64,000 nt of DNA. It comes from Octopus vulgaris. Taxonomy: Eukaryota. Made by a program: the position numbers and the translations under genes. This document shows positions 46,107 to 59,048 of the stretch, in pieces. A model generated the notes under the pieces. The model had not been told where the DNA came from. It saw nothing but the letters and a program-made list of their open reading frames with translations, and did not search any database. The DNA is taken from contig OX597816.1 of the NCBI GenBank assembly GCA_951406725.2, forward strand, positions 88,288,001 to 88,352,000. Direction: 5' to 3'. Numbering within the stretch: the first letter of the stretch is position 1; each line of letters starts with the position of its first letter.

Positions 46107-46179
<73 letters not shown>

Positions 46180-46180
<1 letters not shown>

Positions 46181-46857
46181 TAGTTTTATTTTTATAGCGT
46201 GCTTTCACTTCACTACCGAGTACAGCTCTGTGTGCCTTGGGTATGTGCTGTGATTTGTTGTGATGCTCTGATGGTTATTGTATGGAAAGTGTTCTGCGTA
46301 GGATGTGTGCAGTGCCTAGTAGTGCAATTTTCTGTATGTTATATGTGTTTGTAAGTCCTGGTGTTTTTGTTATGTATTTGTCTGAATATTTTTTTATCAT
46401 GCCTAATGCACCTACTATGATAGGAATTGTTTCTGTTTTCAGATTCCACATTCTAGTTACCTCTATTTCCAGGTCTTTGTATTTTGAGAGTTTCTCCATT
46501 TCTTTTAGAGACACGTTGTCATCAGCCGGTATTGATACATCAATTAGAAAGCATTTTTTTTCTTCATGATCTCTGACAACTATATATGGTCTGTTGGCCT
46601 TAATTTCTCTATCTGTGTGTATCGGCATATCCCAGAGTATGGTTGCTTTCTCGTTTTCTGTGACCTTTTCTGGTGTGTGCCTATACCATCTTTTTTCTGT
46701 TGTTATTCCATAATGTTGGCATAGCTTCCAATGTATGTAGGTTCCAACTCTGTCATGTCTGTGAATATATTCCTTCTTAGCCAAGACTGGGCAGCTAGAG
46801 ATTATATGATTTATTGTTTCTTGTCCATCTCCACATATTCTGCAGTTACTTGTAATA

Positions 46858-46860
<3 letters not shown>
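46180..46860 (-). mobile_element. R4/Dong LINE 3' end (CCHC zinc knuckle, REL endonuclease, 3' UTR) inserted in (TAA)n
   Basis: CRICGDGQETINHIISSCPVLAKKEYIHRHD...ILWDMPIHTDREIKANRP.IV...LIDVSIP...KEMEKLSKYKDL...IPIIVGALG; open frame to the stop at 46275; (TTA)n on both sides. Confidence 0.92.
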
Positions 46861-46914
<54 letters not shown>

Positions 46915-46995
46915 CATCATCATCATTATTATTATTATGCAGGTCACTGCCAGGAATCGAACTCGGAATCTTGGGGTTAGTAGCCATATGAACGT

Positions 46996-47048
46996 GGGCA
47001 CAAGACGTAGTGGTTAAGAGCGCGGGCTACTAACCCCAAGATTCTGAG
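46996..47048 (+). repeat. Inverted, truncated copy of the tRNA-like head
   Basis: GACGTAGTGGTTAAGAGCGCGGGCTACTAACCCCAAGATTCTGAG; its 3' part is the reverse complement of 46961-46985. Confidence 0.75.
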
Positions 47049-47065
47049 CTTAACTCTCTCATATC

Positions 47066-47113
47066 GTCTCTGATGAGGGGATATTCTTCATATTCCTGAA
47101 ACAGCTGTAAGAC
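47066..47113 (+). ncRNA. Canonical type I hammerhead motif
   Basis: GTCT-CTGATGA-GGGGATAT TCTTC ATATTCCT-GAAA-CAGCT-GTA-AGAC. Stem I GTCT/AGAC, palindromic ACAGCTGT stem III, GUA cleavage triplet. Confidence 0.85.
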
Positions 47114-47227
47114 TACCTTTCTCTTTATAAATGTCCTAGAAATTTCACACTGCCTTGGCTTTGTTGTCTCATTTTATTTAACACACACACGCCAACACAC
47201 ACACATACACACACACATACACACAGA

Positions 47228-47261
<34 letters not shown>

Positions 47262-47328
47262 TATGTATATGTATGTATATATATATATATATATACGAGC
47301 GAGAATGAAGCAACAAGAATGGATAGGT

Positions 47329-47419
47329 TTTTAGTACAATCGTTTCATACAAGGACAGGTTTTATTAAAAGTTGCAAAAATTACAGCATATAAACGTGTC
47401 CCGTACTCATCAGCTAAAA
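47329..47419 (-). ncRNA. Type I hammerhead motif with long stem II (left arm)
   Basis: Exact reverse complement of 47807-47897. Confidence 0.75.
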
Positions 47420-47806
47420 TACATGTGAGTTCTCTAGACATCCTAATGGTTGAGGCTATACTCATGAAGTAATGTAGATAATTAAGTAACATAAACAGAT
47501 TTCAAAAGTTCATTAAAGTTCTTTAAAGATGATGTACAGTCTTATCACAGAATTTTAAAAAAGTCTTAATAGCATCACAGAGAAGGTGACCCAATCTATA
47601 GTGCACATATGAATTCATATGTGCACTATAGATTGGGTCACCTTCTCTGTGATGCTATTAAGACTTTTTAAAATTCTGTGATAAGACTGTACATCATCTT
47701 TAAAGAACTTTAATGAACTTTTGAAATCTGTTTATGTTACTTAATTATCTACATTACTTCATGAGTATAGCCTCAACCATTAGGATGTCTAGAGAACTCA
47801 CATGTA

Positions 47807-47897
47807 TTTTAGCTGATGAGTACGGGACACGTTTATATGCTGTAATTTTTGCAACTTTTAATAAAACCTGTCCTTGTATGAAACGATTGTACTAAAA
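47807..47897 (+). ncRNA. Type I hammerhead motif with long stem II (right arm)
   Basis: TTTTAG-CTGATGA-GTACGGGACACGTTT...AAACCTGTCCTTGTAT-GAAA-CGATT-GTA-CTAAAA; 6-bp stem I and a ~60-nt stem-loop II. Confidence 0.78.
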
Positions 47898-48042
47898 ACC
47901 TATCCATTCTTGTTGCTTCATTCTCGCTTATAATCACCCCACATTACTGTATTGTTAAATCAGTATAGTTTTTTTTTGGTGCATCTAAGTTAGGTACCAT
48001 ATTCAAGTAAATTCATTTAAATTAACTTGAATCTTTATTGCT

Positions 48043-54940: not shown

Positions 54941-56226
54941 TCAAAATTTTTACTGCCTCCTTTTTCTCAGTAGACTATATCTGTACACTACTTCAAACAC
55001 TCTATACAAATACGAGACCCCGAGTTTACGAGTTACATTTTATAATAAATATTAATGGTTACACAGCCATTTTGAGTGTGTGGCAACGTCAGAACATGTG
55101 GCAACACTGGTTCTGACGCGTCTACACAACGACGGAATAAAATGACAGTATAAAACTTCATCCTACAATTCGAAATTATTGCTCTGCTTTACGAGTTTTA
55201 CCTCTATGAGCTCTCTTCGGAAGCAAATTACGTTGTATATCGAAGCATTACTCTGTATATATATTGACATATATGAATATGTATGTTTGTGTATAAGGAA
55301 AAGAAAATAATGTGTGGAAAGACAATAAGGAAAAAGTAAGAAAAGGAAGAGAGAACAATAACAGCAATCGTATGTTTTTAGTAGAACACGTTTTTCATTC
55401 CGCCATGATGTTTTAATCCACATTTTGTTAATGTGACAAATCAATTATATTTCTCTAAGCAAAATATACTTGTTAAGTTAATACGCGTTGCCTACGCTTG
55501 GACGTTTATGCAAATAAAGTTCGCTGAATCTTTCCCTATTTGCGTGTGTACAACGAATAGCTGAGAGCTACCGTCATCAGTATAATAAGAGACATGAGTA
55601 ACCAATCTCTAGTGAATCTAGTAAGAGCTACCTCCTTTTGTTAATTCAGAAGATTCTGCTCATTATAAGTGTAAACTATATACATCGGGCAATAACATTC
55701 GAGATTTCAATAAATTCCGGTTATAATAATACACATTTAATGAATAGAAAATATTTTAATAATTGTAACATAGCGCGGTTGTGCTGTTTCTTTTATGCTA
55801 GTTTGTACACATCTTTATATATAATACTATGGAATTTGAAAATATACGTTCGCATTAAGTTCTTTGTTAAATATATTCTCCAAGTACCTACGAGATATGT
55901 ATCCATGTTACAAATAGTGAATAACACCTGCAATAATAAATTCTTAATATATTACGGATTTCACTACAAAGGACGTGGTGTATAGTAACAAGTCGCGACT
56001 CAGATATTAATTCCATAATTGCACCTGCTAATTTTGGTTGAATATTAACTTTACAAGTGTATTTTTAGTCAGCGAAATATAATTGATTTGTTACATTGAC
56101 AAAATTCGGGGCCCCTTCTCTATGGTATATAGGTATATTGAATATGTAAACCTATATTTAAGAGATGTGGAATTATGTACATTATTTACAATTGACGGGT
56201 GTTTGTCCTCATCGTGTTTGTTGTTA

Positions 56227-56270
56227 ACACAACGTTTCGGCTGATATACCCTCCAGCCTTCATCAGGTGT
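56227..56270 (-). ncRNA. Minimal type I hammerhead motif
   Basis: ACAC-CTGATGA-A-GGCTG GAGGGTATAT CAGCC-GAAAC-GTT-GTGT. Perfect stems I and II; palindromic AACGTT stem III. Confidence 0.85.
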
Positions 56271-56335
56271 CTTGGGAAAATTTCGAACCTGAGTTCTCAT
56301 TCCTAAGGTATTTTTCGATGTTGTTGTTGTTGTTG

Positions 56336-56376
<41 letters not shown>

Positions 56377-56484
56377 ATTATTATTATTTTATTATTATTA
56401 TTATATTATTATTATATTATTATTATTATATTATTATTATTATTATTATTATTATTGTTATTATTATTATTATCATTATTATTA

Positions 56485-56516
<32 letters not shown>

Positions 56517-56564
56517 GTTGTTGTTGTTATTGTTATTATTATTATTATTATATTATTATCCTTA

Positions 56565-56611
<47 letters not shown>

Positions 56612-56627
56612 GTTGTTGTTGTTGTTG

Positions 56628-56678
<51 letters not shown>

Positions 56679-56689
56679 TCAATACCTGG

Positions 56690-58640
56690 TTTTCATATAA
56701 TATTTTTTCTTTAATTTTCGCATTTTTGTAAGTTTGGTAGTCTTTGCAAACTTAAAGTTTTTCAAACATTCTATGTCAGACCGAAATAGCTTAATTTGGT
56801 GTTGAATCCGTTCTTGCCAAGAAGGCTTTTTTTGTGAGAATGTTGCAGTTTTCTAATCTTTTCACCACATAGAATCGTTTAGATTTTTGCCGATGCATAG
56901 TACTGGTGGTTGAGATCTGCGATATCAACATCATTAGCTGAAATTATATCCTTAAGTGCAAGGCGGATTTTATCAATTATTTTCAAGTTTTGGTTAGAAT
57001 TTCGAATTTTAGAGAGAGTATCGCGTTCATCCATACTGGCTTCTTTAACTTTCAGCCATTCAATCAAGATTTGATTTTTTTTTAAGATCATGTAGTTCTG
57101 TTGGGTCAATATTTGTATGACTGTCTCCATGTATTTGATTTTCATCTGCCAAAGTACTTATGGTTGGTTCAGTGAGAATTTCATTTTATCTATTTCAATC
57201 ATTACTTCGTTTTCATCAGCCCTAGGCTGGTCTGTAATTATTTCCTCTGAAGTATCTTCTTTAGCTGCAGTTTCCTTCTTTTTATCCCTTACTGCTTGTT
57301 TAATTTAGTCAATCTCTACTTCAGTCAGTATTTTTTTTCATAATGTTTCTTTTGACGTTGGCAAGTTTGTTACTGTCTATGTAGGGTTTTACTTCAGGGT
57401 GTTTCTGTCTCCAGTTTAAGTAGGTTTGTACACTATTAGATTTATCTGTGGGGAAATATATGGCATGGTAGAAGGCCATAAGAACTTCTTTATTATCTTC
57501 CCTAGACCTTTTTCATTCTTTTACTTTTGGTTATTTGATGTCGAGCATGGATGGCCATCTGTTGGGATATTGAGGTTTGGAGTAGTTCCAGCTCCTGTGT
57601 GTCGGGAAGATTTGAAGCAGTAGCTGATTTTTCTACCCGAATCTGGTTCAACATTTGAGTACGTGGTCTTTTGTAATTCGGTCGATGGCCATTCCGGTTT
57701 GTATTTTGCATTGTTAACAGTGAAGCATGACGAGCTTCGACGTTGACATTGGGGGATGGATCTGTCTGTTTAGGGTTATTTTTTGAGACAACACTGTATC
57801 CGTGTTCTCTGCATATAAGCATTGCTCGTAACGTAATTTCTTAAGTCTAACAGATCTATATCGTGTGTGTGGCCCTTTGTAATCTGATCGACGACTAACC
57901 TGGTTTGTATTTTGCTTTGAAATCACTGAGGTATGACGAGCTTCGACGTTGACATTAAGGGGCAGATTTGTCTGTTTAGGGTCAATTTTTTGAGACAACA
58001 CCGTCACCAAGTTCTCTGCATGTAAACATTGCTCGTAACATTGCTTCTTAAGGCTAGCAGATCTGTATTCGTCTGCATTTTTTCATTGATAGATTTATCT
58101 TCGAACATAATTTCTTTTTTGTGTGGTGTTTTTAAACCGATGAATGCTTCAGTCTGTCTGTGTTAGTTCGAAAACTGAAAAAAAAGAAAAAAGTATTGTT
58201 CTTGCTTTTGCTTATGTCCTGTAAATTTCATGTAGTTGTGTAAACATTGAGATGTATGTGTTCTCCTATGTGAATCAAAATGTATATATGATTGTGTAGA
58301 CATTCGAGTGTATAAGTAATTACTCAATTTATGTACTTACTTCTTCGTTCCATTTCTATTTTAGAATTTGCAAACTTTCCAGTGTTGATATCTCGTGTGT
58401 GTTTCGCACATGTTTCATTGAGACACCGTGCGTAGGAGAAACTGTGCTTTGTATGGCAGTAATATTTCTTTTTTCTTTTTGTATTTTCGTTAAAAAGCCG
58501 CTTCCTTCAAGTCTTCCCCAGGTTCCTTTATCCAATTGGATTTGTTTTTGAATTTTACTACATCCATGTTGTTGTTCTTCTTCTTAGTTGTATTTATTGC
58601 CTTAGCACGCTGGAGATGTACTGCAGTGTCTATTGTTATA
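56690..58640 (-). mobile_element. R4/Dong-like LINE N-terminal (5') fragment
   Basis: WRQKHPEVKPYIDSNKLANVKRNIMKK..LTEVEI (Myb-like), DIADLNHQYYASA and PSWQERIQHQIKLFRSDI, as in the R4/Dong N-terminus; contains two ~207-bp tandem copies (~57660-58072). Confidence 0.72.
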
Positions 58641-58672
58641 ATAATAATAATAATTATTATTATTATTATTGT

Positions 58673-58734
58673 TGCCTGGAATCGAACTCGGCATCTTGGG
58701 GTTAGTAGCCCACGCTCTTAACCACTACGTGGGC
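58673..58734 (-). other. tRNA-derived Pol III head (not a functional tRNA)
   Basis: Minus strand CGTAGTGGTTAAGAGCGTGGGCTACTAACCCCAAGATGCCGAGTTCGATTCCAGGCA: A-box remnant, anticodon-like arm (CT-ACT-AA) and B-box GAGTTCGATTCC; acceptor stem imperfect. Confidence 0.8.
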
Positions 58735-58736
58735 AA

Positions 58737-58922
58737 TTATGGAGTGAATTTTAGGGCTTGTAAATCTAATATTCTCCTATTCTTCCTTAATACTGGTTCC
58801 CATATGCTGTTCGTATCTACACACGGTCTGCTTAAGAGGTTGTGTCCTAGCATATGTGCTGCTTATTTTAGTTTTCATATTTTCCAGTGGTGTTCTCCGT
58901 CTATTATTTTAACTTCATCCCA
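58737..58922 (-). pseudogene. PLE (Penelope/Poseidon-type) GIY-YIG C-terminus remnant
   Basis: WDEVKIIDGEHHWKI*KLK*AAHMLGHNLLSRPCVDTNSIWEPVL (cf. W...KILD.E..W..R..KEA.HI...LNR.......W.P). Confidence 0.75.
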
Positions 58923-59048
58923 CATGTTTGCATACATGATCAGTTATATTCTCGATTTCTTTACCCTCGTGTAATTCTTTTAATGCTAATTTTACATATC
59001 TATTAATCTGACTATCTATCTGCCATTCTATTTGTCCGTCTGTCTGAC

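Follow-up and report, generated by a model that had tools for sequence, protein, structure and literature searches.

A 64,000-nt stretch of the Octopus vulgaris genome (contig OX597816.1, positions 88,288,001 to 88,352,000 of the forward strand; hereafter the window) carries on its minus strand a tRNA-like head, an (AAT)n spacer and a hammerhead ribozyme motif, in which an initial annotation had seen a candidate hybrid of a short interspersed element (SINE) and a retrozyme. While a tRNA-like head and a hammerhead are indeed joined in one repeat, that repeat is the pseudo-long terminal repeat (pLTR) of an autonomous Penelope/Poseidon-type element with reverse transcriptase (RT) and GIY-YIG domains, and not a separate SINE-retrozyme. 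The window locus is a dead, interrupted copy of this abundant protein-coding Penelope-like element (PLE), whose pLTR begins with the tRNA-like head. Considering that most copies begin at the head and that the gene is free of stop signals for RNA polymerase III (Pol III), Pol III likely transcribed the whole element. The initial annotation did not consider that the promoter could drive the whole protein-coding element.

The order within the family is stop of the open reading frame (ORF), linker, head, (AAT)n, ATG, hammerhead and ORF. A complete pLTR-ORF-pLTR copy, L091, was found by walking upstream, and partial tandems with the order GIY-YIG end, head, hammerhead and ORF are present in L097, L108, L115 and L118. 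The sequence past the hammerhead, previously taken for a tail, opens the ORF of the element, ~835 aa long, in which the RT precedes GIY-YIG in a single frame and which matches RVT_1 with an E value of 1.4e-10. The nearest relatives of the family, P0001-P0007, are 55-68% identical. The family protein gave no direct match to the GIY-YIG model, and this domain was assigned through alignment to P0070: a 569-aa open frame of L229, running from the RT to the C-terminus, aligns at 40% across the Pfam GIY-YIG match of P0070. The majority ORF was split at residue 495 into two segments, each of which was analyzed separately; the break is not real, as single copies such as L229 read through it in one frame. 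The first family ATG lies ~30 nt before the ribozyme and is in frame through the hammerhead, and homology to the N-terminus of an intact 847-aa relative, P0003, covers this stretch. Removal of the hammerhead by an intron was rejected, given the open frame through the ribozyme, the homology of P0003 there and the lack of any sense-strand splice joint among those listed in the RNA reads. Neither the PDB nor the viral contigs gave a match.

Other features of the family are likewise those of PLEs. The head, (AAT)n run and hammerhead stand directly 5′ of the ORF in 7 of 30 ORF-start loci. Among 90 hammerhead-anchored loci, an inverted partner of the 5′-truncated kind known from PLEs adjoins 41, and copies end at one of two 3′ termini, +47 to +59 (34/90) or +81 to +96 (49/90) past the cut, which amounts to the optional 30-40 nt tail of such elements. 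The core and stems of the predicted ribozyme are those of a minimal type I hammerhead. The translated region shows no CxxC motif of a zinc-finger-like linker between RT and endonuclease, consistent with PMC8557442, and the family is a candidate member of the Penelope/Poseidon clade. Long copies diverge by 2.8-8.2% at non-CpG sites (median 5.1%, n = 91). Among the matches listed, no intact ORF was found and the longest stop-free match is 569 aa, so the family looks inactive in this genome. The ORF majority also has 28 non-CpG sites at which a second allele reaches at least 25%, pointing to at least two sub-lineages, and one of these second alleles alters the variable base of the hammerhead core.

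In the 2.8 Gb of genome searched, a 42-mer of the hammerhead has 1040 exact matches and a 33-mer of the head 1394, with none for either reversed control. Scaled by the exact-match fraction (1/50 and 3/40), the copy number is very roughly 20,000-50,000. The head comes next in 22 of 29 GIY-anchored copies and the hammerhead segment follows in 26, the head being co-linear with both as part of a PLE pLTR. For a head-anchored set we used 70 of 100 listed loci, taken in genome order, all on C1, by the exact head 33-mer and blind to flanks; 68 of them run into (AAT)n and 56 have the hammerhead segment no more than 600 nt away, and most of those without it have another insertion or flank after the (AAT)n run. 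These co-occurrence counts show that the architecture is not chance adjacency. The order of head, (AAT)n, hammerhead and extension that had been described for the minus strand is therefore real, and it recurs at 46985-45952 as well as genome-wide. At L038, the head and a short inverted piece form three head-to-tail repeats that stop before the hammerhead.

The (AAT)n spacer also appears as a landing pad in many copies (such as L003, L148, L189, L209, L139, L149, L146 and L194), which hold another recurring repeat or two kinds of 3′ ends of long interspersed elements (LINEs). These LINEs are presumably of Dong/R4 type, the analysis itself giving an RT-bearing 1225-aa ORF that ends in (AAT)n. 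Dong/R4 LINEs prefer (TAA)n for insertion. A very young family of this type (L507-L510; C1 and C7 of G000) has open frames of 1129-1225 aa and many identical-scoring copies.

In the family majority, the head has A and B boxes at canonical spacing, while both window copies are damaged; of the A/B-box head claimed for the window, the B box is intact at 58687-58678 and the A box is absent from both copies. The best match of the head among 30 genomic tRNA loci is a weak one, to tRNA-Arg(TCG) over 49 of 73 nt, and an exact-pattern genome search for one candidate parent tRNA found nothing. ARAGORN, with default and relaxed settings, did not call the head a tRNA, Rfam matched neither the head nor the hammerhead (its miRNA hits were simple repeats), and the folding z-scores of the hammerhead were not significant. 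Since ARAGORN and Rfam detect neither, the two putative identities are based on motifs and alignment. In the majority, both boxes have been kept and the cloverleaf has decayed, including the acceptor and T stems, which suggests selection on a promoter and not on the tRNA fold. No A/B pair follows the ORF in any of 19 control PLEs, and relaxed ARAGORN on 80 metagenome PLE loci returned scattered noise only. Loose matches to the A/B pattern upstream of hammerhead-like cores in 2 of 36 loci (L251 and L279) were not tRNA-like and were discounted.

The 5′ ends of the copies are concentrated at the head boundary. In the head-anchored set, 55 of 70 ends lie between -20 and +6, counted from the first head base, another 9 fall within the head and 6 farther upstream in the linker or GIY region; the mode is exactly +1 (8 copies), and most ends below -13 are fold-back extensions. 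The rate of 5′ ends is 0.067 per nt at the boundary compared with 0.006 inside the head and 0.003 upstream, and 55 of 61 ends fall in 27 nt where 15% are expected. Of the independent 90 hammerhead-anchored loci, 39 have the head and 20 of these begin at -13 to +6, whereas 36 terminate in the (AAT)n run or are broken up there and 15 stop short of it. Most simply, the majority of templates started right at the head or just before it. If the head were instead a passenger or processing site in a Pol II transcript, the ends would come from RT stalling or fold-back at a hairpin, or from an RNase P cut at +1. The mode at exactly +1 would fit this, as would the 12 of 70 copies that fold back at the head and the hundreds of RNA reads with the same mirror junction. 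However, 52 of the 64 non-GIY copies have no fold-back at the head (the 70 junctions comprise 27 with plain flank, 25 with an inverted partner elsewhere, 12 fold-backs at the head and 6 GIY-linked), and the hotspot is not only hairpin fold-back. In addition, RT crosses the more structured body of the head at one tenth of the end rate, many ends include -2 to -7, which RNase P would remove, the acceptor and T stems have decayed while the boxes were kept, and the missing T-runs are left unexplained. We consider a passenger head quite unlikely.

If Pol III read the whole unit, T-runs should have been purged from its sense strand. TTTT and TVTTT are the shortest working Pol III terminators in mammalian cells (PMC8466645). 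In the majority of 2613 nt, built from 403 aligned segments at a depth of 32-250, the sense strand has no run of four or more T (T4) compared with 31 runs of four or more A, also when minority T alleles are taken. Under synonymous shuffling this absence has a probability of 0.024, which falls to 0.007 when bases are shuffled and to 0.002 with composition-weighted resampling. Counting T4 together with TVTTT, 1 was observed against 5.6 expected (P = 0.007), while nine control ORFs had 84 T4 or TVTTT against 75.9 expected. From the 80 metagenome loci we obtained 67 PLE ORFs, 50 after de-duplication and 19 with a T content of 0.19-0.26 and a length of at least 1200 nt; none of the 19 lacks T4, which occurs at 3.4 per kb, and the 2 of 50 that do are both under 900 nt. 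Four Dong ORFs of the same genome have 3-6 T4 and 1-2 T5 runs, and a second hammerhead family without the head has T4 in the terminal 132 nt of 23 of 29 copies. The TTTT noted earlier at 56280-56277, where read-through had been questioned, is present, but it is a mutation private to the window copy, the family having TTTC. The terminator signal is consistent but of moderate strength.

The 5′ hotspot would be explained equally well if the head promoted short RNAs only, as a pLTR SINE mobilized by the PLE, with the autonomous element transcribed by Pol II and the absence of T-runs due to chance or composition. Short copies do far outnumber ORF copies (3350 hammerhead-segment candidates against 389 ORF-start candidates), and the problems of capping and processivity (PMC10886601) would be sidestepped. 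Yet terminator depletion spans 2.5 kb of ORF, and solo copies have neither diagnostic differences nor a younger age than ORF-linked ones (median divergence 0.048 and 0.043), the same T/A polymorphism being seen in 16 of 77 solo and 13 of 47 ORF-linked copies. Over 180 nt, solo and ORF-linked pLTRs are alike in majority, polymorphism and divergence, which is a weak test in that both sets were selected by similarity, and no independent SINE lineage is therefore visible. Restriction of Pol III to short RNAs thus seems to us unlikely, though well worth weighing.

That a Pol III RNA cuts itself at the hammerhead and spreads on its own as a small, possibly circular RNA, as the initial annotation proposed, is very improbable. 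A single-hammerhead RNA with a 5′-triphosphate would lack the 5′-OH needed for RtcB-type ligation. The RNA ends are described in PMC7761336. The order of promoter and then hammerhead is that of Schistosoma Sm-alpha (PMC6765202), the window retains one intact minimal hammerhead, and animal retrozymes are reported as pLTR-derived (bioRxiv 10.64898/2026.07.22.740005). However, in 53 of 56 head-anchored copies the sequence continues for 40 nt or more beyond the cut, and no copy stops at it; this set was the one used for the question, as the anchor of the hammerhead-anchored set reaches 3 nt past the cut. Given that copies end at the two termini past the cut, the template was uncleaved there. Just one distinct same-strand head-to-tail hammerhead pair (seen twice) was found among 146 hammerhead-bearing loci (of 160 examined), against 70 opposite-strand pairs, so that the head-to-tail units by which the same preprint recognizes retrozymes are nearly absent. 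No joint at the ribozyme cut is among the RNA joints listed (15 for each of two mappings, which had 52 and 89 further joints), in libraries unsuited to small circles, and the hammerhead was dispensable for insertion of the Anolis element in vitro (PMC11167929).

That the pLTR may be transcribed by Pol III, as had been suggested, is favored by the distribution of 5′ ends and the lack of terminators, two independent lines of indirect support. We lean, by a little, towards a reading in which Pol III starts at the upstream head and reads through to a T-run in the flank, and RT starts internally after either hammerhead of the same RNA. Pol III would start at or a few nt upstream of the head of the upstream pLTR and would read the ORF and the downstream pLTR until it meets a T-run in the flank. 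RT would then begin on uncleaved RNA, ~59 or 90 nt beyond a hammerhead, as in the Anolis element. A start after the first hammerhead would yield the many SINE-looking copies of 250-300 nt that stop at the RNA 5′ end, and a start after the second would yield long 5′-truncated copies such as the GIY-linked copy of the window. Solo copies that retain intact boxes might likewise undergo transcription and be mobilized in trans, and the protein could come from Pol II read-through. The wider proposition, on which we stop a little short of even confidence, is that an autonomous protein-coding retrotransposon switched to Pol III by capturing a tRNA promoter in its pLTR and purging terminators from an ORF of 2.5 kb, so that one RNA gave rise to full-length copies and, via internal RT initiation, to tens of thousands of SINE-like copies, perhaps with capless translation.

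Several points weigh against whole-element transcription by Pol III. Pol III RNA is uncapped, and translation from it needs explanation. The depletion of T-runs is modest under the most conservative null (P = 0.024), the test sets a majority sequence against single-copy controls, one Dong ORF tested is also slightly low (5 against 7.7 expected, P = 0.11), and one TCTTT remains ~260 nt into the unit. A second octopus PLE ORF, as an in-genome control, was not found, a Poseidon search having given this family alone in the 30 loci checked. In three raw unstranded RNA-seq runs of a related species (X21-X23; ~6% of each run was used), 86-87% of mapped reads run into unlike flanks, no pile-up of RNA starts or ends was reported, many reads of the head continue into the upstream linker, and depth falls just ~2.3-fold from the head to the GIY side. 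Weak processivity of Pol III is also held to force autonomous elements onto Pol II (Kojima 2024, PMC10886601). Depth in these runs is in the thousands over the pLTR and ~3-35 over the 5′ ORF, and reads leave the element at both 3′ termini and at the -7 fold-back, mirroring genomic copies. The RNA signal is passive read-through and neither shows nor excludes past use of Pol III. At L071:1650-1696, reads from each of the three runs jump over 45 nt that are bounded by GT..AG in antisense to the element, which suggests an exonized copy in a host transcript.

The features of the two window copies, copy 1 (58944-56152) and copy 2 (46985-45952), are collected in the table.

Table. Features of the two copies of the element in the window.
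Copy	Feature	Position	Strand	Remark
1	ORF C-terminal remnant, GIY-YIG end, broken	58758..58944	-	Family protein alignable to P0070 over its Pfam GIY-YIG region
1	Linker from ORF stop to head, with the left half of a small GCCC/GGGC hairpin at its end (head boundary)	58730..58757	-	
1	tRNA-derived head, first 11 nt missing	58673..58729	-	A box damaged
1	First (AAT)n run	58636..58672	-	
1	Inserted Dong/R4-like LINE 5′ fragment	56686..58635	-	N-terminal part of ORF, no RT
1	TGACCTG (3′ end of head) and expanded (AAT/AAC)n spacer	56320..56681	-	
1	Pre-hammerhead segment with first family ATG (56300-56298), in frame through ribozyme	56272..56319	-	P0003 homology
1	Minimal type I hammerhead, full core	56226..56271	-	Cut after 56231
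1	ORF start to distal 3′ terminus (PLE "tail")	56152..56225	-	~79 nt past cut
2	Inverted partner, partial head	46996..47048	+	Fused to second PLE-type family at 47050
2	5′-truncated head, +29 onward	46940..46985	-	No A box
2	Young Dong/R4-type LINE 3′ fragment inside (AAT)n run	46176..46860	-	97.8% identical to intact copy
2	Broken hammerhead segment	45952..46096	-	Ends at proximal terminus (+59)

In copy 1, the family stop codon lies at 58760-58758 and is mutated to CAA; the stop placed at 58737 by the initial annotation corresponds to a secondary stop near 58738, and the head does not follow the ORF directly but is separated from it by a 24-nt linker. The insert (1.96 kb) matches the intact 1225-aa Dong-type ORF in tblastn with 30-34% identity (E 3e-5). 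Since the 3′ end of the head lies on the far side of this insert, copy 1 may be two fused copies; alternatively, the parts at 58.9 kb and 56.3 kb may be one split copy. The hammerhead, described as well formed, has its full core in copy 1, with a stem II of 5-6 bp, a stem I of 5 bp and a palindromic helix III of 1-2 bp that is predicted to need a dimer. In copy 2 it is broken, with core G8 changed, mismatches in stem II and the cleavage triplet deleted.

Other hammerhead motifs occur nearby. The second PLE-type hammerhead family (2116 candidates), fused to the inverted head of copy 2, occupies 47050-47180 on the plus strand; in its 29 other loci examined, the upstream region is T-rich and lacks a tRNA head, a splice-donor-like GTAAG stands at the ribozyme, and ten extended loci contained no long ORF. 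A near-perfect palindrome of ~630 nt at 47298-47928 has 264-nt arms that are 100% complementary and a self-complementary center, each arm holding a hammerhead-like motif with a long stem II (47413 on the minus strand, 47813 on the plus strand), and is probably a young inverted insertion of a third family. Two mutually similar hammerhead-core-like motifs in opposite orientation lie at 2482 (minus) and 2548 (plus).

The prevailing view restricts Pol III promoters in mobile DNA to short non-coding elements. An RT-endonuclease element of 2.9 kb that is adapted to Pol III read-through would run counter to this view, and would show how a SINE-like family can arise directly from an autonomous element. 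The role of hammerheads in PLEs could then be studied in a case where the ribozyme is part of the ORF of an RNA that may be uncapped; in RNA viruses, self-cleavage reportedly permits translation without a cap (PMC13725137). Annotations of "unclassified SINEs" in octopus may include many PLE terminal repeats. The literature searched, which did not extend to subscription papers or to Repbase, Dfam and SINEBase, contains no description of a tRNA-headed pLTR or a Pol III-driven autonomous PLE. The family may have an existing library entry, or its head may be identical to one of the octopus SINEs of Ohshima and Okada 1994.

Compared with known systems, the family is closest in build to endonuclease-bearing (EN+) Penelope/Poseidon elements, namely Poseidon PAc of Anolis (PMC11167929) and Penelope of D. 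virilis, with which it shares a single ORF of RT and C-terminal GIY-YIG, partial tandems of the pLTR and inverted 5′-truncated partners. As in Anolis Poseidon, the hammerhead overlaps the ORF start and two 3′ termini lie ~30 nt apart inside it; there, two internal sites serve for RT initiation, and insertion persists when the ribozyme is mutated (PMC11167929). In contrast with those PLEs, the octopus pLTR places an A/B-box head of tRNA origin and an (AAT)n spacer 5′ of the ATG, no intron was seen, and the sense strand is free of T4; the promoters of Penelope and Chlamys-3 overlap a 5′-UTR intron (PMC8557442). Both Sm-alpha and Sj-alpha of Schistosoma (reviewed in PMC6765202 and PMC2770079) have a Pol III-type promoter followed by a type I hammerhead, but these are tandem, released by cleavage and without an ORF, whereas octopus copies occur singly or inverted, reach beyond the cut and belong to an ORF-bearing element. 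Metazoan non-LTR retrozymes (PMC7229834; bioRxiv 10.64898/2026.07.22.740005) are likewise short, pLTR-related units with a type I hammerhead, although they are defined by tandem units and circular RNA, neither of which was seen in the octopus family. The TRIMp3 elements Cassandra, Helenus and Ajax (PMC10886601) also carry in their terminal repeat a Pol III promoter of small-RNA origin, captured probably by SINE insertion, from which the template RNA is made; according to the same paper, the poor processivity of Pol III leaves their autonomous LTR partners dependent on Pol II. While TRIMp3 elements are non-coding LTR elements of 0.3-1.3 kb, the octopus element is a protein-coding PLE of 2.9 kb.

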